Shown: positions 316-8,836 of the stretch, piece after piece
Layout: each line of letters opens with the position of its first letter
Position numbering within the stretch: position 1 is the stretch's first letter
Virus genome (UHGV): UHGV-1586438
Length of the DNA stretch: 11,824 nucleotides
Direction: 5' to 3' (one strand)
Source of the DNA: a virus
The notes under the pieces: generated by a model
What the model was told of the DNA's origin: nothing
The model's input: only the letters and a program-made list of their open reading frames with translations
Database searches by the model: none
Position numbers and translations under genes: made by a program

Positions 316-452
316 AATCTTAACTACAATATGATTCATTTTGATGATTGTTTCATAAGGAACAGTGAAGTAAGATCTAAGAGGAGTTAAATTTTATACA
401 GTATAATCATAATATTGCAGCAAGGTGGTTATAATTGAAAGAATATTTAGAT
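316..452 (+). promoter_or_regulatory. AT-rich intergenic region upstream of trkG; candidate promoter/RBS region
   Basis: 137-bp AT-rich non-coding gap between the Rz stop and the trkG ATG. TATAAT hexamers occur at 402-407 and 430-435 but neither has a convincing -35 partner, and no strong Shine-Dalgarno precedes the ATG at 453. Exact promoter position is not resolvable by eye. Confidence 0.25.
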
Positions 453-1910
453 ATGAATACATCTCATGTAAGAGTTGTTACTCATATGTGTGGGTTCCTG
501 GTTTGGCTCTATAGTCTTTCAATGTTGCCACCAATGGTTGTAGCATTGTTTTATAAAGAAAAAAGCCTGTTCGTTTTCTTTATAACTTTCGTTATATTTT
601 TTTGCATTGGTGGCGGAGCGTGGTATACAACTAAGAAATCTGGCATTCAATTACGTACCCGTGATGGGTTTATTATAATTGTAATGTTTTGGATTTTGTT
701 TTCTGTTATTAGTGCATTCCCTTTATGGATTGACTCAGAACTTAATTTAACGTTCATTGATGCTCTGTTTGAAGGGGTTTCTGGAATAACAACAACAGGA
801 GCAACTGTAATTGATGATGTTAGTTCATTACCTCGGGCAATTTTGTACTATCGGTCACAGTTAAATTTTATAGGTGGTTTAGGAGTTATTGTTCTGGCGG
901 TTGCTGTATTGCCATTATTGGGTATTGGTGGTGCAAAGCTTTATCAGTCAGAAATGCCGGGGCCATTTAAGGATGACAAACTCACTCCCCGCCTGGCCGA
1001 TACGTCACGGACACTGTGGATAACTTATTCTTTATTAGGTATTGCTTGTATTGTCTGTTATAGACTTGCAGGAATGCCTTTGTTTGATGCTATTTGTCAC
1101 GGGATTTCCACAGTTTCGCTTGGTGGTTTCTCAACTCATAGCGAGAGTATCGGATATTTTAATAACTATTTGGTTGAGCTGGTGGCTGGTTCTTTTTCCC
1201 TGCTATCGGCTTTCAACTTCACTCTTTGGTATATTGTTATTAGCAGGAAAACGATAAAACCTTTAATCAGAGATATTGAACTTCGTTTCTTTCTGTTAAT
1301 AGCCTTAGGGGTGATCATTGTTACCTCTTTCCAGGTCTGGCATATAGGTATGTATGACTTGCATGGAAGTTTTATTCATTCGTTTTTTCTTGCCAGCTCC
1401 ATGCTCACTGATAATGGTTTAGCTACGCAAGATTATGCAAGTTGGCCCACGCACACGATAGTGTTTTTGCTGTTGTCAAGTTTCTTTGGGGGATGTATAG
1501 GTTCAACTTGTGGTGGAATTAAGTCACTTCGATTTCTTATACTTTTCAAACAAAGCAAACACGAGATAAATCAGCTTTCTCATCCCAGAGCGTTGTTGAG
1601 TGTAAATGTAGGAGGGAAGATAGTTACAGATCGTGTAATGAGGTCTGTATGGAGTTTCTTTTTTCTTTATACTCTCTTCACGGTGTTTTTTATACTGGTG
1701 TTAAATGGTATGGGATATGATTTTCTTACATCATTTGCAACAGTGGCTGCATGTATTAATAATATGGGATTAGGTTTTGGGGCTACTGCATCGTCATTCG
1801 GAGTGCTTAATGACATTGCAAAATGTTTAATGTGCATAGCTATGATTCTTGGTCGCCTTGAAATTTATCCTGTTATTATATTGTTTTCAGGTTTTTTTTG
1901 GCGCTCCTAA
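453..1910 (+). CDS. trkG: TrkH/TrkG-family K+ uptake membrane protein (prophage moron)
   Basis: 485-aa polytopic membrane protein from ATG 453; the track's 435 start is a TTG six codons upstream. It shows TrkH-family signatures: repeated pore-loop glycine motifs (GVSGITTTGATV, LGGFSTH, ATQDYASWP), the EMPGPFKDDKLTPRLADTSRTLW segment, and FGGCIGSTCGGIKSLRFLILFKQ. N-terminus MNTSHVRVV and length match my recollection of E. coli K-12 TrkG, which sits immediately downstream of the Rz/Rz1 homologues in the Rac prophage. The gene is markedly more AT-rich than its neighbours. Confidence 0.9.
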   Translation: MNTSHVRVVTHMCGFLVWLYSLSMLPPMVVALFYKEKSLFVFFITFVIFFCIGGGAWYTTKKSGIQLRTRDGFIIIVMFWILFSVISAFPLWIDSELNLTFIDALFEGVSGITTTGATVIDDVSSLPRAILYYRSQLNFIGGLGVIVLAVAVLPLLGIGGAKLYQSEMPGPFKDDKLTPRLADTSRTLWITYSLLGIACIVCYRLAGMPLFDAICHGISTVSLGGFSTHSESIGYFNNYLVELVAGSFSLLSAFNFTLWYIVISRKTIKPLIRDIELRFFLLIALGVIIVTSFQVWHIGMYDLHGSFIHSFFLASSMLTDNGLATQDYASWPTHTIVFLLLSSFFGGCIGSTCGGIKSLRFLILFKQSKHEINQLSHPRALLSVNVGGKIVTDRVMRSVWSFFFLYTLFTVFFILVLNGMGYDFLTSFATVAACINNMGLGFGATASSFGVLNDIAKCLMCIAMILGRLEIYPVIILFSGFFWRS

Positions 1911-2047: not shown

Positions 2048-2839
2048 ATGAGCGAGAAATTAAAGATAGTCTATCGCCCATTACAAGAATTGTCACCGTA
2101 TGCGCACAACGCCAGGACGCACAGCCCTGAGCAGGTGGCACAACTGGTAGAAAGTATTAAGCAATTCGGCTGGACTAATCCGGTGCTGATTGACGAAAAG
2201 GGCGAAATTATTGCGGGTCACGGTCGTGTTATGGCGGCTGAAATGCTCAAAATGGATTCTGTTCCGGTCATTGTTCTGTCTGGCCTGACGGATGAGCAGA
2301 AAAAGGCGTACCGCCTGGCAGATAATCGCCTGCCGATGAATGCTGGCTGGGATGAAGATCTGTTGCGGATGGAGCTGTCGGACCTAATCAATGCTGATTT
2401 TGATGTCTCCCTGACAGGCTTCATCCCGACAGAAATTGATGAACTGTTGACGGATGTTTTGCCCGGTACAGGAAATGAGGAGGAGCCGTATACGACGAAA
2501 ATTGATACGCCTGTTTATGAGCCGTCGGGCGGTAAACCGGATATCAGTGAACTGTACGACGATACGAAAACTCAGGAGCTGATCAGCCGGATACGTTCGG
2601 CGTCCCTTGAGCCTGATATTGAGAAATTCCTCCTGTGTGCGGCAGAACGTCACACGGTGTTTAATTTCAGCAGAATTGCGGACTATTACGCTCACGCCCC
2701 CTCTGAAATTCAGTGTTTTTTCGAGGAGTCGGCGCTGGTGATCATTGATTATCAGCAGGCTATTGAAAATGGATTTGTCCGGATGACGCAGCGCATGGTG
2801 GAGATCATGCATGGTGGTGAGGAGGAGGAATATGCGTGA
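2048..2839 (+). CDS. ParB N-terminal domain (ParB/sulfiredoxin-like nuclease) protein with an uncharacterised C-terminal half
   Basis: 263-aa ORF with AAGG 5 nt upstream of the ATG. The N-terminal ~100 aa (LQELSPYAHNARTH...PVLIDEKGEIIAGHGRVMAA...VIVL) has the ParB-N/Srx pattern, including a GxGR-type motif. The acidic C-terminal part is unassigned. Position (after lysis genes, before terminase) is typical for phage ParB-like proteins. The K-12 Rac gene ynaK occupies the equivalent position but is much shorter. Confidence 0.7.
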   Translation: MSEKLKIVYRPLQELSPYAHNARTHSPEQVAQLVESIKQFGWTNPVLIDEKGEIIAGHGRVMAAEMLKMDSVPVIVLSGLTDEQKKAYRLADNRLPMNAGWDEDLLRMELSDLINADFDVSLTGFIPTEIDELLTDVLPGTGNEEEPYTTKIDTPVYEPSGGKPDISELYDDTKTQELISRIRSASLEPDIEKFLLCAAERHTVFNFSRIADYYAHAPSEIQCFFEESALVIIDYQQAIENGFVRMTQRMVEIMHGGEEEEYA

Positions 2840-3764
2840 TGATTTTTGCGCCTTTATTCTGACTCACGGGCGACCGGACAAAGTTCTGACTTACCGGACG
2901 TTGCGTCGTGCTGGCTATACCGGGAAAATTTTTATCGTTGTTGATGATGAAGATAAGACACGGAATCAGTACATGGCTGAATTTGGTGAACAGGTGCTGG
3001 TGTTTTCCAAAGCCGATATCGCCAGTCGTTTTGACGAAGCCGATAATTTCTGTGACCGCCGCTCAATTTTTTACGCCCGTAATGCCTGTTTCGACCTGGC
3101 AAAACTGGTCGGGTGTAAATACTTCATTCAGCTCGATGATGATTATCACGAGTTCCAGTTTCGGGTGGATCGCAACTATGACCAGGCCTATTTTCCGATA
3201 AGGAAACTGGATGCGATCCTTTCTGAAATGCTGGCGTACTACGAATCAATACCTGCTCTTTCCATCGCTATGTCGCAGGGCGGGGATTTTCTTGGTGACA
3301 ATGGCGGCCATGCTTCGTGGGTGAAACGCAAGGCAATGAACAGCTTTATCTGTTCGGTTGATCGACCGTTCTCATTCATGGGGCGCATTAACGAGGATGT
3401 GAATACGTACACGAATCTCGGTCGCTGTGGTGAATTGTTTATGACGATCGGTGCTGTCCAGTTAGGGCAGAAACAGACGCAGAAAAACAGCGGTGGAATG
3501 ACCGAGCTGTATCTGGATTCCGGAACCTACGTTAAAAGTTTTTACTCCGTCATGTATGCGCCGTCGTGCGTAAAAATCTCACTGATGGGTGCCAGCCATA
3601 AACGCATTCACCATCAGGTCACCTGGAACAACGCTGCAGTAAAAATCCTTCACGAAAAATACAGGAAGAAGACACCCTGCATATCAATGGGGGTGACAAA
3701 TGATTCCGTATTCGAAAGTCGAGTCTCTGGCAGCGTGCCGGATGACTGCACAACAAATCGCTGA
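2832..3764 (+). CDS. GT-A-fold glycosyltransferase-like protein (DxD motif); substrate unknown
   Basis: 310-aa ORF starting at ATG 2832, with GGAGGAGGAA immediately upstream and an 8-nt overlap (ATGCGTGA) with the ParB-like stop, implying translational coupling. Motif order resembles GT-A/GT2 enzymes: FILTHGRPD (beta1), IFIVVDDEDKT (acidic DD motif), FIQLDDDYHEF (DxD). The assignment is motif-based inference only. Confidence 0.6.
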   Translation: MRDDFCAFILTHGRPDKVLTYRTLRRAGYTGKIFIVVDDEDKTRNQYMAEFGEQVLVFSKADIASRFDEADNFCDRRSIFYARNACFDLAKLVGCKYFIQLDDDYHEFQFRVDRNYDQAYFPIRKLDAILSEMLAYYESIPALSIAMSQGGDFLGDNGGHASWVKRKAMNSFICSVDRPFSFMGRINEDVNTYTNLGRCGELFMTIGAVQLGQKQTQKNSGGMTELYLDSGTYVKSFYSVMYAPSCVKISLMGASHKRIHHQVTWNNAAVKILHEKYRKKTPCISMGVTNDSVFESRVSGSVPDDCTTNR

Positions 3765-3951
3765 CGTTCTGGATGTTGATCTGAACCGACTGAAAGAAAA
3801 TCGGGAAGCAATGACAGATTTTTATGCGGCCATCCGTAAGGGCAGAGCGAAAGGTGAAGCCGAGTTACGAGCGGCATTGTTTAAGCTTGCCAGAAAAGGG
3901 GATGCCTTTGCTCTGCGCGAACTACTCAGGGTGGATAAAAATCAGGACTAA
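3700..3951 (+). CDS. Small HTH-like protein of unknown function, immediately upstream of terS
   Basis: 83-aa ORF with GGGGGTGA 5 nt upstream of ATG 3700. It is predicted helical with a helix-turn-helix-like stretch (MTAQQIADVLDVDLNRL) and a basic C-terminus. Its stop (3949-3951) is 3 nt before the terS ATG. It overlaps the last 65 nt of the GT-like gene, so the start is uncertain; an alternative ATG lies at 3742. Confidence 0.5.
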   Translation: MIPYSKVESLAACRMTAQQIADVLDVDLNRLKENREAMTDFYAAIRKGRAKGEAELRAALFKLARKGDAFALRELLRVDKNQD

Positions 3952-3954
3952 CTG

Positions 3955-5049
3955 ATGAGCAGACCGGACTGGGGGGCGTTGCAGCAGGAGTATATTGCTG
4001 AATACACCCGCTCCGGTATATCTCCGGTGGCATGGTGTGAAGCAAGGGGACTGAATTACGCAACAGCCCGTCGTTACATCAAAAAAACTCCGAAAAATGC
4101 GCAGACAGAAATGTGCAAAACTGCGCAAAAAAGTGCGCAGAAAAAATCTGCGCAGACTGCACAAAAGCGGAACGAAAAATCTCAGGAAAAAAAGCCAGTA
4201 TTCGATGCGGGCCTGAATGAGGGCGACGCGGAGGAATTTTCGTTCTGTCCCGATGAATTCGGCATTTCTGACCAGCAGGCTAAGTTTGCGATGCTTGTTG
4301 CTCAGGGTAAAAAGCCGACAGAGGCGTACCGACTAGCCGGTTATGAGGGGCAAGGTGCGACAGCTAACAGCAACGCCAGTCGTATGCTTAGAAATGCCAG
4401 GGTTTTTCGCGCTATCAGCTACTTCCGCAATCAGTACCAGAAACGCTATACCGCAGACCTGGATTTACTAGTGAGTCAGTTGATGGCTATTGTCCTGGCC
4501 GACCCCAATCAGCTTGCACAATTTCGCCGTGTTAACTGCCGTTATTGCTGGGGCGAGAATCATCTCTACCAGTGGCGCGATATAGCAGAATTCGACAAGG
4601 CAGCGGCGCAGGCTTCCAGAGATGGCAAACCCGAACCGGAATATGGAGGCCTCGGCTTTGTTGATAACGCCATACCCAATCCGGACTGCCCGAAGTGCTG
4701 CGGTGAGGGAACGGGACAGCTTTATATGGCTGATACCACTCTGCTTGATGGGGATGCGCGGCAATTATATGCAGGGGCAAAATTCGGAAAATTCGGCGTT
4801 GAGATCCTGCTGGAGGATAAGGCTGCCGCCCGGCGTGAATTGTTGCGTTTGTTTTCTGCTGGCGGGGCTTTATGTGCAGATAAACGGCTACAGGAACTGG
4901 AAATTGAACGGCGCAGAATGGAAAACCAGAAGCTGCGCAAAGAGATCGAAACGGTGGAAGATAATGAACATCCCCAGCCTGTGGCGATCAATATTAATGT
5001 GGTTGATGCCAGAGTAAGGAGTGATGAAGATGATCTCTCCGACGCTTAA
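3955..5049 (+). CDS. Terminase small subunit (Terminase_2/P27-like core with N-terminal HTH extension)
   Basis: 364-aa ORF with AGGA 7 nt upstream. It has an N-terminal HTH-like region (GISPVAWCEARGLNYATARRYIKK), a low-complexity xAQK linker, a core resembling the Terminase_2 signature (QQAKFAMLVAQGKKPTEAYRLAGYEG...SNASRMLRNARV), paired CxxC motifs and a C-terminal coiled-coil-like segment. It lies directly upstream of, and overlaps, the terminase large subunit gene. Confidence 0.75.
   Translation: MSRPDWGALQQEYIAEYTRSGISPVAWCEARGLNYATARRYIKKTPKNAQTEMCKTAQKSAQKKSAQTAQKRNEKSQEKKPVFDAGLNEGDAEEFSFCPDEFGISDQQAKFAMLVAQGKKPTEAYRLAGYEGQGATANSNASRMLRNARVFRAISYFRNQYQKRYTADLDLLVSQLMAIVLADPNQLAQFRRVNCRYCWGENHLYQWRDIAEFDKAAAQASRDGKPEPEYGGLGFVDNAIPNPDCPKCCGEGTGQLYMADTTLLDGDARQLYAGAKFGKFGVEILLEDKAAARRELLRLFSAGGALCADKRLQELEIERRRMENQKLRKEIETVEDNEHPQPVAININVVDARVRSDEDDLSDA
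4098..4166 (+). repeat. Six phased direct repeats of TG(C/T)(G/A)CA(G/A)A inside terS; candidate pac / TerS-binding site
   Basis: Copies begin at 4098 (TGCGCAGA), 4112 (TGTGCAAA), 4122 (TGCGCAAA), 4134 (TGCGCAGA), 4149 (TGCGCAGA) and 4158 (TGCACAAA), with 9-15 bp spacing. They coincide with the low-complexity peptide TAQKSAQKKSAQTAQK. Confidence 0.5.
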
Positions 5050-6331
5050 TGTGCCTCAGGCGCGATTTCTTTCAATGCCCCATAAATTTAAAGCCTATAT
5101 TGCTGGTTTTGGCTCGGGCAAAACATGGGTTGGGTGTGGCGGCATATGCAAGGGGATTTGGGAGCATCCAGGTATAAATCAGGGATATTTTGCGCCAACG
5201 TATCCCCAAATTCGCGATATTTTTTACCCTACAGTGGAAGAAGTTGCTGCTGACTGGGGATTGAACGTAAAAATTAATGAGGGAAATAAAGAGGTTCACT
5301 TTTATTACGGACGCCAGTATCGGGGAACCACTATCTGCAGATCGATGGAGAAGCCACAAACGATCGTCGGTTTCAAAATTGGTAATGCGTTGGTGGATGA
5401 ACTGGACATTTTGCCGAAGGAAAAAGCCAGAACGGCGTGGCGCAAGATAATTGCACGTATGCGTTATAAGATTGATGGACTTCGCAACGGTATTGACGTT
5501 ACAACCACGCCGGAAGGATTCAAATTTGTCTACGAGCAGTTTGTTAAAGCCGTGCGTGAAAAAACAGAGCTGGCCTCACTGTATGGTCTGGTGCAGGCAT
5601 CTACTTTCGATAATGAAAAGAACCTGCCAGCAGATTACATTCCTTCGCTTCTTGAATCATACCCTCCAGAGCTGATTAAAGCCTATCTTCGAGGACAGTT
5701 TACTAACCTGACAAGTGGTACTGTTTACCATCAGTTTGACCGGAAACTGAATAATTGCGAAGAAGTGGAGCAGCCAGGGGAGCCGATTTATATTGGGATG
5801 GATTTTAACGTTGGAAAGATGGCGGGAATCGTCCATGTGCTGCGTTTGGGGCTTCCATGTGCGGTAACTGAAATCATCAATGCCTACGATACGCCGGATA
5901 TGATCCGCATCATTAAAGAACGCTTCTGGCTGTATGATGGGAATGATTACCGGAAAGTGAGGGAAATTTATATTTATCCAGATGCTTCCGGGGATTCCAG
6001 AAAATCAAGTAACGCAAGTACGACGGATATAGCCCAGCTTAAGCAGGCTGGTTTTAACGTTGTGGTGAACAGCTCGAACCCGCCAGTAAAAGATCGCGTT
6101 AACTCAATGAATGCAATGTTCTGCAATGCCAATGGTGAGCGTCGCTATAAAGTTAATGTGAAGCGTTGCCCGTTATATGCCGAATCTCTGGAGCAACAGG
6201 TCTGGGATGAGAAGGGGGAGCCTGATAAAAAATCTGGCAATGATCACCCGAATGATGCCGGAGGTTATTTCATCGTTAAGCAATTCCCTATTGTCAAACC
6301 GACCGGAAGAGTCACATCACTTCGGATTTAA
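5030..6331 (+). CDS. Terminase large subunit (ATPase/nuclease)
   Basis: 433-aa ORF from ATG 5030, with AAGGAG at 5016-5021 (8-nt spacing); the track's 5021 start is a GTG too close to the SD. N-terminal Walker A P-loop (AGFGSGKT), acidic Walker B-like stretch (NALVDELD), size and position between terS and portal all fit. The start overlaps the terS 3' end by 20 nt. Confidence 0.85.
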   Translation: MISPTLNVPQARFLSMPHKFKAYIAGFGSGKTWVGCGGICKGIWEHPGINQGYFAPTYPQIRDIFYPTVEEVAADWGLNVKINEGNKEVHFYYGRQYRGTTICRSMEKPQTIVGFKIGNALVDELDILPKEKARTAWRKIIARMRYKIDGLRNGIDVTTTPEGFKFVYEQFVKAVREKTELASLYGLVQASTFDNEKNLPADYIPSLLESYPPELIKAYLRGQFTNLTSGTVYHQFDRKLNNCEEVEQPGEPIYIGMDFNVGKMAGIVHVLRLGLPCAVTEIINAYDTPDMIRIIKERFWLYDGNDYRKVREIYIYPDASGDSRKSSNASTTDIAQLKQAGFNVVVNSSNPPVKDRVNSMNAMFCNANGERRYKVNVKRCPLYAESLEQQVWDEKGEPDKKSGNDHPNDAGGYFIVKQFPIVKPTGRVTSLRI

Positions 6332-6333
6332 TT

Positions 6334-7740
6334 ATGGCTGATATATCAACACCCAACCTCGACTATAACGATATGCTGGAGGCGTGGGATATTAACGACG
6401 CACTGATGGGCGGTACGCTTGAAATGCGCAGGCAGGGGGAAAATTATCTCCCAAAATGGCCTAACGAAGATGAAGACGCTTATAAAAAACGCCTGTCTGT
6501 GGCTACGCTACTTCCTGTGTATGAAGAAAGCATCAAGCAAAATATTGGGCGCATATTTGCAGAGCCGACAGTATTGAGTGAGGAAACGCCGGCAAAAATC
6601 AGGGAATATGCAGAAAATATCGACATGGAGGGGAGCCGACTGGATGTGTGGGCGCAGCAATTTTTCAGCCTCGCATTTCAGTATGGTGTGGCACATGCGC
6701 TGGTGGACTATCCACGAACGGATATGAAAGAGATTCGTACAAAAGCCGATGAAAACGCGACCGGTGGTCGTCCGTACGTTACGATGCTGAATCCACGCCA
6801 GGTTATTGGATGGAAATCGAAAGTTGAAAAAGGGAAAGTTGTTCTCACTGATTTGCGTATAAAAGAGGTCATCATTATTGATGGTGATGATTTCGGGCAG
6901 AAGAAGGTGGAGCAGATCCGCCATATTATGCCCCGTCGAGTTGAAATTTATCGACGTAGCGAAGGCACTAATGGCGAATCTGTCTGGACGCTTCATGAGT
7001 CATGGAATACCAGCCGTGATGATATTCCTCTGGTAACACTGTACACGAAGAAAACAGGATTTATGCGTGGTACACCGCCATTGCATAATCTTGGCTTGCT
7101 GAATATCAAGCACTGGCAAAGCCAGAGCGAGCAGGACAATATTCTTCATGTTACCCGCGTTCCATTGCTGGTGGCCTACGGGCTGGACAGGAATGAAGAA
7201 CTGACGGTTGGTGCATCCACCGCTACGATTTTTGAGGACAGAACAAAAAATGGCCTCGAATATGTTGAACATAGTGGCGCAGCGATAGAATCTGGCGAAA
7301 CATCACTTGAGAAGCTGGAAAATCAGATGCGTCATGCCGGCGCTAAACTTCTGCGTGCTGAAAATACATCCACCAAATCTGTTGATCAGACTAATGAAGA
7401 GCGAATGCAGGAAAACTCGCCGCTTTATACAATGGCGAACTCCCTCGAAGATGCCCTCGATAATATTCTCCAGATAATGGCGGAATGGATCGGAGAGAGT
7501 TGCGGTGGCAATGTGGATGTGCGCACTGAACTGGATGTATCTGCCCAGGTGTTTGACTCATCCTCCGCGCTGGCTGTTCAGTCATTGCGTCAGGGCGGTG
7601 ATATACGTCAGATTGATGCGGTTCGGGTGTTGCAGGCGTTGAAATTTATCGATCAGGATTCCCGTCCAGAGGAAGTGATCGATGAATTAAAAAATCAGAG
7701 TGTAATGCTGATGGAAATCAATGATGCAAACCGTGAATGA
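6334..7740 (+). CDS. Portal protein
   Basis: 468-aa ORF beginning 3 nt after the terL stop, with an acidic C-terminal region. The call is by conserved synteny (terL then portal then MuF-like protein) and size; no diagnostic motif is visible by eye. Confidence 0.7.
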   Translation: MADISTPNLDYNDMLEAWDINDALMGGTLEMRRQGENYLPKWPNEDEDAYKKRLSVATLLPVYEESIKQNIGRIFAEPTVLSEETPAKIREYAENIDMEGSRLDVWAQQFFSLAFQYGVAHALVDYPRTDMKEIRTKADENATGGRPYVTMLNPRQVIGWKSKVEKGKVVLTDLRIKEVIIIDGDDFGQKKVEQIRHIMPRRVEIYRRSEGTNGESVWTLHESWNTSRDDIPLVTLYTKKTGFMRGTPPLHNLGLLNIKHWQSQSEQDNILHVTRVPLLVAYGLDRNEELTVGASTATIFEDRTKNGLEYVEHSGAAIESGETSLEKLENQMRHAGAKLLRAENTSTKSVDQTNEERMQENSPLYTMANSLEDALDNILQIMAEWIGESCGGNVDVRTELDVSAQVFDSSSALAVQSLRQGGDIRQIDAVRVLQALKFIDQDSRPEEVIDELKNQSVMLMEINDANRE

Positions 7741-8836
7741 ACGGCTGCGTGATGAATCAATTGCTCATGCAGTCTGGATATCCCGCTATAGCACTGGCGT
7801 GGCTGCCAGAATGGTGAAAATACTGAATGACAGCGATGCGGAACTTACTGCTCGCCTGCTGATAGCACTGGACAGCCTCGATCCAGGTAATTTTACCGTT
7901 AAGCGCCTGGAGTCACTTCTGGCGAGCGTCAGAAAGGTTAACCGCACTGCTATTAACAGCATGTTTACCAGTCTCTCCGGAGAGCTGAACGAGCTGGCAA
8001 TTTATGAGGCTGGTTATCAGTTAAGTCTGTTTGATTCTATGCTACCTGATTTTGTTGCTGATGTTCACCCTCTGGTTGGTATCTCTCCTGATGCACTTTA
8101 TGCCGCTGCAATGGCGCGACCATTCCAGGGACGACTGCTCAGTGAGTGGGCCTCAGATCTTGAGGCGGATCGGCTCAGACGCATAACAAATACAGTGCGT
8201 CAGGGTTTTTTGCTGGGGGATACCAATGAGCAGATCGCAAGAAAAATTCGGGGACATGTCAGTAAGGGATTTCAGGATGGTGCATTGCAGATGAGCCGGG
8301 CTAATGCGGCCAGCATTGCAAAAACAGCGGTTGGGCATCTTGCTGCTACTGCCCGTGAGAGTTTTGCCAGCGCGAATAATGATTTGATTAAGGGTAAGCA
8401 ATGGTTATCAACGCTTGATAATCGTACTACGCCACAATGTCGAATCAGGGATCGCCTCAAATATACGCTGAATAATAAACCTGTAGGTCACAGCGTGCCT
8501 TATTTGCAGGGGCCGGGAAAAATTCATTTCTGCTGCCGCTCAACGGAAACGTTCATTCTGAAATCAGCGAAGGAACTGGGTATTGATGTTCGCGATATTT
8601 CCCCGGCTGAGCGGGCCAGCATGGATGGCGTGGTGGCCGGAGATACAACCTACAGGGAATGGTTTTTGCGTCAGCCTTACACCAGACAAAAACAGATTGT
8701 GGGGGAAACCCGAGCAAAGCTGATTCGGGATGGTGGTATGTCGCCAGATGAATTTTACACCGATAAAGGCGAATGGCTGACGCTGAAGCAGCTCCGTGAG
8801 CGTGATGCACAGGTATTCAGAAAAGCAGGGATTTAA
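7721..8836 (+). CDS. Head morphogenesis / minor head protein (SPP1 gp7 / Mu F-like)
   Basis: 371-aa ORF overlapping the portal 3' end by 20 nt; start is either ATG 7721 or 7724. Position immediately after portal and size fit MuF-family proteins. The call is synteny-based. Confidence 0.6.
   Translation: MMQTVNERLRDESIAHAVWISRYSTGVAARMVKILNDSDAELTARLLIALDSLDPGNFTVKRLESLLASVRKVNRTAINSMFTSLSGELNELAIYEAGYQLSLFDSMLPDFVADVHPLVGISPDALYAAAMARPFQGRLLSEWASDLEADRLRRITNTVRQGFLLGDTNEQIARKIRGHVSKGFQDGALQMSRANAASIAKTAVGHLAATARESFASANNDLIKGKQWLSTLDNRTTPQCRIRDRLKYTLNNKPVGHSVPYLQGPGKIHFCCRSTETFILKSAKELGIDVRDISPAERASMDGVVAGDTTYREWFLRQPYTRQKQIVGETRAKLIRDGGMSPDEFYTDKGEWLTLKQLRERDAQVFRKAGI

Follow-up and report, generated by a model that had tools for sequence, protein, structure and literature searches.

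Pac sites set the start of headful packaging and of the lateral transduction of host genes. They have been determined experimentally in only a handful of phages and are hard to predict. In phage P1, the pac site is a part of pacA, 161 base pairs (bp) in length. PacA and PacB bind to its seven hexamers (HEX4 and HEX3), and synonymous mutation of these hexamers lowered the phage titre about nine-fold (PMC10028697). The pac site of SPP1 has sets of direct repeats and overlaps with the start of the small-terminase gene, and the DNA-binding domain of the SF6 small terminase is a weak, non-specific DNA binder that picks bendable DNA by its conformation (PMC4737164). The pac of P22 is a single asymmetric sequence with a 17-nucleotide (nt) consensus inferred from pac-like sites of the host, and mutants at wobble positions have split its DNA function from the protein function (PMC11260489). 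The DNA studied here is a stretch of 11,824 nt from the virus genome UHGV-1586438 (hereafter the window), which carries a group of TGCGCA(A/G)A elements inside terS, the gene of the small terminase subunit. These elements (4098-4165) are probably the pac recognition array of a headful Rac-type prophage, and would be bound by the PacA-type N-terminal domain of TerS itself. This reading draws on four lines of sequence comparison: selection on the DNA, the exclusive link between array and domain, the covariation with residue 39 and the homology to PacA. The preliminary description of the window had suggested a pac site at this place, and that interpretation is now supported by strong comparative evidence.

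The repeat array and its conservation

The preliminary description had reported six copies of an 8-mer in the linker-coding part of terS. The location was confirmed, as the six elements span nt 144-211 of terS, between the N-terminal domain (amino acids, aa, 1-45) and the Terminase_2 domain (aa 122-321) of the product. The copies starting at 4098, 4122, 4134 and 4149 were exact, but those at 4112 and 4158 had one mismatch each. In close relatives, the 4112 site was an exact TGCGCAAA (loci L003, L004 and L011), and the 4158 site was also an exact TGCGCAAA (L002 and L003). Thus, the six-site layout appears to be real, and the window holds a copy of it with two point-degraded sites. The sites had A-rich flanks, with the consensus AAAA[C/G]TGCGCA[A/G]A in a logo of 434 sites. 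The intervals between the six sites were 14, 10, 12, 15 and 9 bp (mean 12), and so the helical-turn phasing proposed before was not borne out: intervals of 9-15 bp are irregular and match one turn only loosely, and the sites do not lie on one face of the helix. In addition, the repeats had been said to encode a repeated xAQK peptide. Five copies indeed gave xAQ(K/T), but the 4112 copy was read as M-C-K.

The only further plus-strand TGCGCARA in the window was at 4934, 770 bp beyond the array. On both strands of the window, six TGCGCARA matches were found against 1.5 expected, and at least six were reached in 1 of 200 shuffles. Furthermore, four TGCGCA within 70 bp formed the densest cluster in the window as well as in the 38.7-kilobase (kb) Rac-type genome, which contains 19 TGCGCA in all and no second 70-bp segment with even two of them. 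In 20,000 trials each with uniform placement of the hexamers, four were reached once for the window and twice for the 38.7-kb genome.

The conservation of the array was studied on TerS loci collected from 49 species genomes and from 80 viral contigs. When the linker peptide of the window was recoded with randomly resampled synonymous codons, at least four TGCGCA appeared in 16 of 100,000 trials. Among 40 relatives, 143 of the 157 AQ dipeptides in the linker were coded as T|GCG|CA, compared with 35% in the rest of the gene; the alanine codon was GCG in 92% of these dipeptides and the preceding base was T in 96%. The adjacent N-terminal domain used the same codon for identical amino acids in only 48% of the pairs. 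Moreover, the hexamer was found in all three reading frames across the relatives, being read as T-A-Q (ACT GCG CAA), as M-R-K (ATG CGC AAA) or L-R-T (TTG CGC ACT), and as K-C-A-E (AAG TGC GCA GAA), and one locus (L133) reads N-C-A-E-Q-K-C-A-N. The preservation of the motif in three frames together with the fixation of its synonymous positions shows selection on the DNA and not on the peptide. By this comparison, the repeats are conserved as DNA rather than as protein. The preliminary description had allowed for selection on the DNA, the protein or both, and had named as contrary evidence relatives that retain the peptide with the DNA repeat scrambled; the comparison now decides the question in favour of the DNA, and the relatives showed the reverse pattern, with a varying peptide and a retained DNA motif. 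The third-position diversity along terS was also calculated for E. coli-type alleles. It was low throughout the 5' end, N-terminal domain included, which did not delimit the element, and it was not used.

The N-terminal domain and its coupling to the array

The first 45 residues of TerS form a domain which, as judged from similarity searches, is homologous to the N-terminus of PacA. The N-terminus of D6 PacA matched the window TerS with 9e-11 in BLASTP and with 98% and an E value of 2e-13 in hhalign; for the N-terminus of P1 PacA the values were 0.002 in BLASTP and 92.6% and 4.6e-7 in hhalign. In addition, aa 10-44 of P1 PacA gave a sub-threshold match to HTH_23 (E 6.6e-4), a helix-turn-helix (HTH) family. 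Sequence searches with the domain itself returned no Pfam family and no relative in the PDB. Among the matches listed for a homologue search with the 62-aa domain, there were only truncated, frameshifted fragments, and among those listed for the full TerS only relatives at least 81% identical. A single-sequence AlphaFold 2 model of low confidence (mean pLDDT, the predicted local distance difference test, of 66) placed helices at residues 6-20, 24-31 and 35-42. According to this model, R39 and R40 would lie within the third, recognition-type helix.

The array was closely coupled to this domain. All 40 TerS that start with M(A/S)(K/R)PDWG...GLNYATARRYIKK (the PDWG...ARRYIKK domain) had three to eight TGCGCA in nt 118-285 of the gene. 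Another 14 TerS share the same body with another N-terminus, and 12 of them had no TGCGCA, one had one and one had two. The coupling was also examined in reverse, by scanning IMG/VR with a DNA pattern alone (TGCGCARA, 1-10 nt, TGCGCARA, 1-10 nt, TGCGCA). The scan gave 120 loci, of which 118 had enough upstream sequence to be evaluated, and in 110 of these the domain was encoded on the same strand, no more than 330 nt upstream. The eight exceptions were unrelated repeats. One of them (L209, reverse strand, about 10,800) has an open reading frame (ORF) for a replication-initiator-like winged-HTH protein followed by about eight TGCG(C/T)AAA iterons, and looks like an origin inside an initiator gene, as in lambda O. 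Another (L220) encodes a different TerS-like HTH followed by three TGCGCAGA. The preliminary description had placed the array inside terS; by sequence comparison, the array is tied to one PacA-like N-terminal HTH domain of TerS, a stronger link than had been guessed.

Other N-terminal domains were accompanied by other repeats. For instance, a different N-terminal HTH (ERDYCAG...AIRKRA.K.GW; L016, L047 and L048) was followed by four to five GTACGCA at nt 140-230 of terS. These arrays occupy two frames (G-T-Q and V-R-K) at a position equal to that of the TGCGCA array. A further N-terminal variant on the same TerS body (L017 and L036) was followed by GGGCAAA three times. These other HTH types with arrays of their own suggest that a cassette of an HTH domain plus its cognate array is general in terS genes. 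In Klebsiella-type relatives (L006-L009 and L018-L046), a second group of sites (TGCGCAGG, TGCGCAGC and TGCGCAC) was observed at nt 348-391 of terS, about 150 nt past the main array, where it codes for AQAIAQ; the window type is without such a group. This second group resembles the second arm of P1, and it may be such an arm or a by-product of the conserved AQAIAQ peptide.

Within the PacA-type domains, the motif covaried with residue 39. The Arg39 class (ARRY, 84 unique sequences) had a mean of 5.2 TGCGCA and no TGCGAA, while the Lys39 class (AKRY, eight unique sequences) had a mean of 4.1 TGCGAA and 0.1 TGCGCA. Residue 39 was the sole position of the 45 at which the residues of the two classes did not overlap. 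The Lys39 domain always preceded TGCGAA(T) arrays and not TGCGCA arrays; these too occupied different frames (N-C-E and T-A-N), and in some cases they formed the palindrome TGCGAATTCGCA.

Both classes were found on several TerS bodies. The TGCGCA cassette occurred on at least three, namely the Terminase_2 body with a CxxC...CxxC insertion of the window, a short 236-aa Terminase_2 protein (L130 and L132) and a 'HGGYGRRML' type (L133), and it was also present on the TerS of Aeromonas phage phiARM81mr. The Lys39 variant (…AKRYIK…) was carried on the same three bodies by Yersinia vB_YenM_29.18, Providencia PSTCR3 and Klebsiella RothC with L129, L131, L134 and L136, and it was also present in Pasteurella Pmp11, with up to nine TGCGAA(T) copies. 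Opposite cassettes were thus found on paired bodies: L130 versus PSTCR3 (L143), L133 versus L129, and the window versus the Yersinia locus L144. The occurrence of both classes on three bodies indicates that the motif goes with the domain, whichever body carries it. The bodies of L130 and PSTCR3 are very similar by eye and yet bear opposite cassettes, and on these alignments the pair amounts to a natural swap experiment.

Taking these observations together, we lean slightly towards a general rule in which many TerS of enterobacterial and related phages carry self-contained, exchangeable packaging-specificity cassettes, each made of an HTH domain and a cognate array of 6-7 bp motifs in the linker. 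In the PacA type, one residue would set one base (Arg39 for TGCGCA and Lys39 for TGCGAA), and other HTH types would go with other motifs. If this is true, packaging specificity and the starts of lateral and generalised transduction would be predictable from sequence, and they could be reprogrammed by swapping one residue together with the site.

Proposed pac function and alternative explanations

The following mechanism is proposed. TerS would read the array through its extra 45-aa N-terminal HTH domain, encoded just upstream in the same gene. The Lys-rich linker, encoded by the array itself, would tether this domain to the Terminase_2 oligomerisation body, and a single TerS oligomer would use several of its N-terminal domains to occupy the clustered hexamers. 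For Arg39 of the predicted recognition helix, the fifth base pair of the hexamer (C:G) is the proposed contact. The occupied array would then mark the concatemer for nearby cleavage by TerL, the presumed nuclease and motor partner of TerS, followed by rightward headful packaging. We infer physical binding, the contact of Arg39 with the base, the position of cleavage, the direction of packaging and pac function itself from the comparisons above.

The body of TerS fits this scheme. Residues 122-321 matched Pfam Terminase_2 (PF03592) with 34.5 bits (gathering cut-off 26.1) and an E value of 3.7e-8; we take this to be the family of SF6 TerS and of SPP1/SF6 G1P. Since the binding domain of the SF6 protein is non-specific, a source of specificity is needed, and the PacA-type domain would add sequence recognition to an otherwise non-specific Terminase_2 body. 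Domain and array would form a portable specificity cassette that is shuffled between TerS bodies by recombination. In addition, the TerL of the window was 42-44% identical to that of Jerseyviruses, which have been reported as headful packagers from a pac site (PMC10783031). These relatives give a headful context for the phage of the window.

Several points weigh against the pac reading. The remainder of PacA was not similar to the window TerS, and PacB had no similarity to the window TerL, so the likeness to P1 is confined to the N-terminal cassette. The window hexamer is TGCGCA and not TGATC(A/G), with no GATC and hence no Dam control, and there is a single array of six sites, whereas P1 has HEX4 and HEX3 flanking the IHF and cut sites. 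No IHF consensus (WATCAANNNNTTR) was found at up to one mismatch anywhere in 3955-5049. The split between the R39 and K39 classes may be a single ancient divergence, which would leave few independent covariation events. The model of the domain was of low confidence, and its comparison with the PDB by Foldseek gave nothing below E = 1. Literature searches for this phage type found no mapped virion ends, coverage step or TerS binding at this place. Finally, the window copy itself may be decaying and not fully functional: two of its six sites are mutated, and many terS alleles in the databases are frameshifted in the A-runs of the linker (4080-4200; L005, L085 and P0001-P0038).

The frameshifted alleles give products of 86-88 aa, essentially the HTH domain alone, and the frameshifts could have come from prophage decay, from sequencing errors in homopolymers or from slippage. 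In Rac-SA53 (L001, KU052037), the annotation describes terS as a deletion fusion (gpO-TerS) that has lost the N-terminal HTH; the array there has decayed, with two of five sites intact, and genes for the LT-IIa toxin lie just upstream. The degraded sites, the frameshifts and the Rac-SA53 fusion fit a picture in which the cassette decays after it has fallen out of use. Literature searches on TGCGCA with terminase, on the pac of the Rac prophage and on pac, terS and lateral transduction returned nothing on this family, and the Yersinia phage paper contained no terminus data.

Four other explanations of the array were considered. The array may be an autoregulatory operator through which the N-terminal domain of TerS controls terS and terL expression or TerS stoichiometry, with pac elsewhere. 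Coupling and covariation leave room for this, as they show only that domain and array belong together and not what the binding achieves. However, the homologous domain of PacA adjoins the hexamers of the mapped P1 pac site, and the established role of TerS is the recognition of pac. To our knowledge, there is no precedent for a terminase operator within the coding sequence of a late operon, and we regard this explanation as unlikely.

The array might instead be bound by another protein than the TerS N-terminal domain, for which the 83-aa product of 3700-3951, a small TerS-like ORF directly upstream, is a candidate, or a host factor. Klebsiella phage relatives nevertheless keep the array although a minus-strand gene upstream of terS replaces this ORF, and the motif tracks residue 39 of TerS across genomic contexts, so that binding by another protein is quite improbable. 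Both the operator and the other-protein explanation are also less economical than a pac site read by TerS because of the homology to P1.

A role in the mRNA was suggested by the folding of the RNA from 4085 to 4200, which was better than that of shuffled sequences (z = -3.6), as palindromic UGCGCA units could pair into hairpins that affect translation or stability. Such a score is expected from repeated palindromes, no compensatory changes were seen in a core that is invariant and does not covary, and the arrays of the K39 class at the same place are non-palindromic direct TGCGAA(T) repeats that cannot pair together; an mRNA role thus has very little probability. Selection on a low-complexity basic xAQK linker alone, with the DNA repeat as a by-product of recent tandem duplication, would account for the repeated TAQK and SAQK and for the AQK-like repeats kept in many relatives, but it is contradicted by the frame and synonymous-site data and is the least probable of the four: peptides that differ (M-R-K, L-R-T, K-C-A-E and N-C-E, three frames) still have the hexamer, its synonymous sites are fixed across proteins just 37-45% identical, and the codon-resampling null is 1.6e-4.

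If the array is the pac site, the likely pac could be located in all 906 E. coli genomes with this terS type by the rule that a hexamer array follows an N-terminal domain of the PacA type. The rule would also cover many prophages of Klebsiella, Enterobacter, Citrobacter, Providencia, Yersinia, Aeromonas and Pasteurella. Moreover, the covariation of Arg39 and Lys39 with C and A offers a handle on how a small terminase reads its site, which is unsettled for Terminase_2-type proteins. The case would further show a recognition protein and its site staying linked through mosaic recombination.

Prophage context and comparison with known packaging systems

The window corresponds to the late-gene junction of an intact lambdoid prophage of the Rac type (Table 1). 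The same DNA with this terS type was carried by 906 of 5,426 complete E. coli genomes; the intact Rac-type lysogen ECCHD184 was 100% identical to the window over 3700-5100. The same DNA was also found in phage records that span the Rac integrase, recET and kil through to the tail genes. The trkG gene lies between the lysis and packaging genes as in the Rac prophage of K-12, which identifies the element as an intact Rac-type prophage. On the upstream side, the packaging genes are adjoined by the genes for a ParB_N protein and a TET-associated glycosyltransferase. The two could constitute a DNA-modification or moron module; a TET dioxygenase or a methyltransferase was not present within the window. 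The 83-aa ORF begins before the glycosyltransferase gene has ended, and its stop lies 4 nt ahead of terS; the product could be an accessory protein for packaging or a remnant. Downstream of the portal gene, a MuF-like protein is followed by scaffold and capsid. The MuF-like head protein is labelled NAD+-asparagine ADP-ribosyltransferase in ON470614, by annotation only, and the label would point to a MuF scaffold with a C-terminal domain of the toxin type.

Two further features of TerS were observed. The CxxC...CxxC insertion (C195, C198, C245 and C248; aa 195-248, 4537-4698) is invariant from E. coli to Paenibacillus relatives and looks, from its sequence, like a zinc ribbon. For the C-terminus of TerS (4840-5049, compared with L002 and L003), two unrelated forms were seen, ...NINVVDARVRSDEDDLSDA and ...IIIHNSLPMPGVDNVD. 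This switch is also where L002 and L003 cease to match the window at the DNA level, and their downstream terL has a different product name in RefSeq.

Table 1. Positions of the repeats, the parts of TerS and the neighbouring genes in the window
Feature	Position	Strand	Basis or remark
terS, small terminase subunit, 364 aa	3955-5049	+	ORF; Pfam Terminase_2; phrog_51 terminase small subunit, E 1.7e-75; RefSeq label 'terminase small subunit'
N-terminal PacA-type HTH domain (aa 1-45), proposed repeat reader	3955-4089	+	homology to PacA N-termini
Arg39 codon, candidate specificity residue in predicted helix 3	4069-4071	+	class comparison
Lys-rich, A-tract-rich linker coding region holding the array	4090-4260	+	logo and alignment
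Repeat 1	4098-4105	+	TGCGCAGA, exact
Repeat 2	4112-4119	+	TGTGCAAA, one mismatch; different frame, M-C/R-K
Repeat 3	4122-4129	+	TGCGCAAA, exact
Repeat 4	4134-4141	+	TGCGCAGA, exact
Repeat 5	4149-4156	+	TGCGCAGA, exact
Repeat 6	4158-4165	+	TGCACAAA, one mismatch
Proposed target site of the N-terminal domain			AAAACTGCGCAAA
Terminase_2 body of TerS with CxxC...CxxC insertion	4318-4917	+	Pfam, alignment
Rz/Rz1	10-315, 71-256
trkG	435-1910		TrkH family, E 6e-145
ParB_N protein	2048-2839
TAGT (TET-associated) glycosyltransferase	2811-3764		PF20691, E 8e-35; phrog_842; RefSeq 'GREB1-related'
83-aa TerS-like ORF	3700-3951		matches middle of small-terminase family phrog_309, E 8e-23
terL, large terminase subunit	5021-6331	+	Terminase_6N and Terminase_6C matches
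Portal	6334-7740
MuF-like head protein	7721-8836

The locus was compared with the described packaging systems. In lambda, the R elements of cosB (bound by gpNu1) and the ori iterons are short repeats bound by the N-terminal (winged) HTH of the initiating protein, and the iterons sit inside gene O, the gene of their own binding protein. Several short repeats read by an N-terminal HTH are also proposed for the window. However, the ends of lambda are cos ends and not headful ones, the R elements are 16 bp long and lie outside Nu1, and the iterons serve replication. The locus resembles P22 in that the pac of that phage lies inside terS (gene 3), but the P22 pac is not a hexamer array, and the TerS of P22 is presumably unrelated to that of the window. 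The LF82 phage Gally also has a pac signal within its own terS, but its TerS is of the Sf6 type without the domain or the motif, and it was set aside as irrelevant. Compared with SPP1 and SF6, the window TerS has a matching Terminase_2 body; the binding domain of SF6 shows little repeat specificity, whereas the window protein carries an unrelated extra HTH that, by the covariation, apparently gives the specificity.

P1 was the closest system. In the P1 record, TGATC(A/G) hexamers were found in two frames at nt 194-233 and 324-380 of pacA, the first arm with spacings of 7, 12 and 15 bp, and the pac cut sites are placed at about 275-285 nt of the gene, next to an annotated IHF site. P1 and D6 PacA share with the window TerS the homologous N-terminal HTH domain. 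In P1, as in the window, palindromic TGNNCA hexamers are placed inside the small-terminase gene just past the HTH-coding part, in more than one frame and with irregular spacing (7-15 bp). The two differ in the body of TerS, which in the window is Terminase_2 with a CxxC...CxxC insert and not PacA-like, and in the element itself, a lambdoid Rac-type siphovirus prophage in the one case and a P1-like plasmid prophage in the other. The arrangement, for which no describing paper was found, can be regarded as a variant of the P1-type pac and not as a new kind of element.

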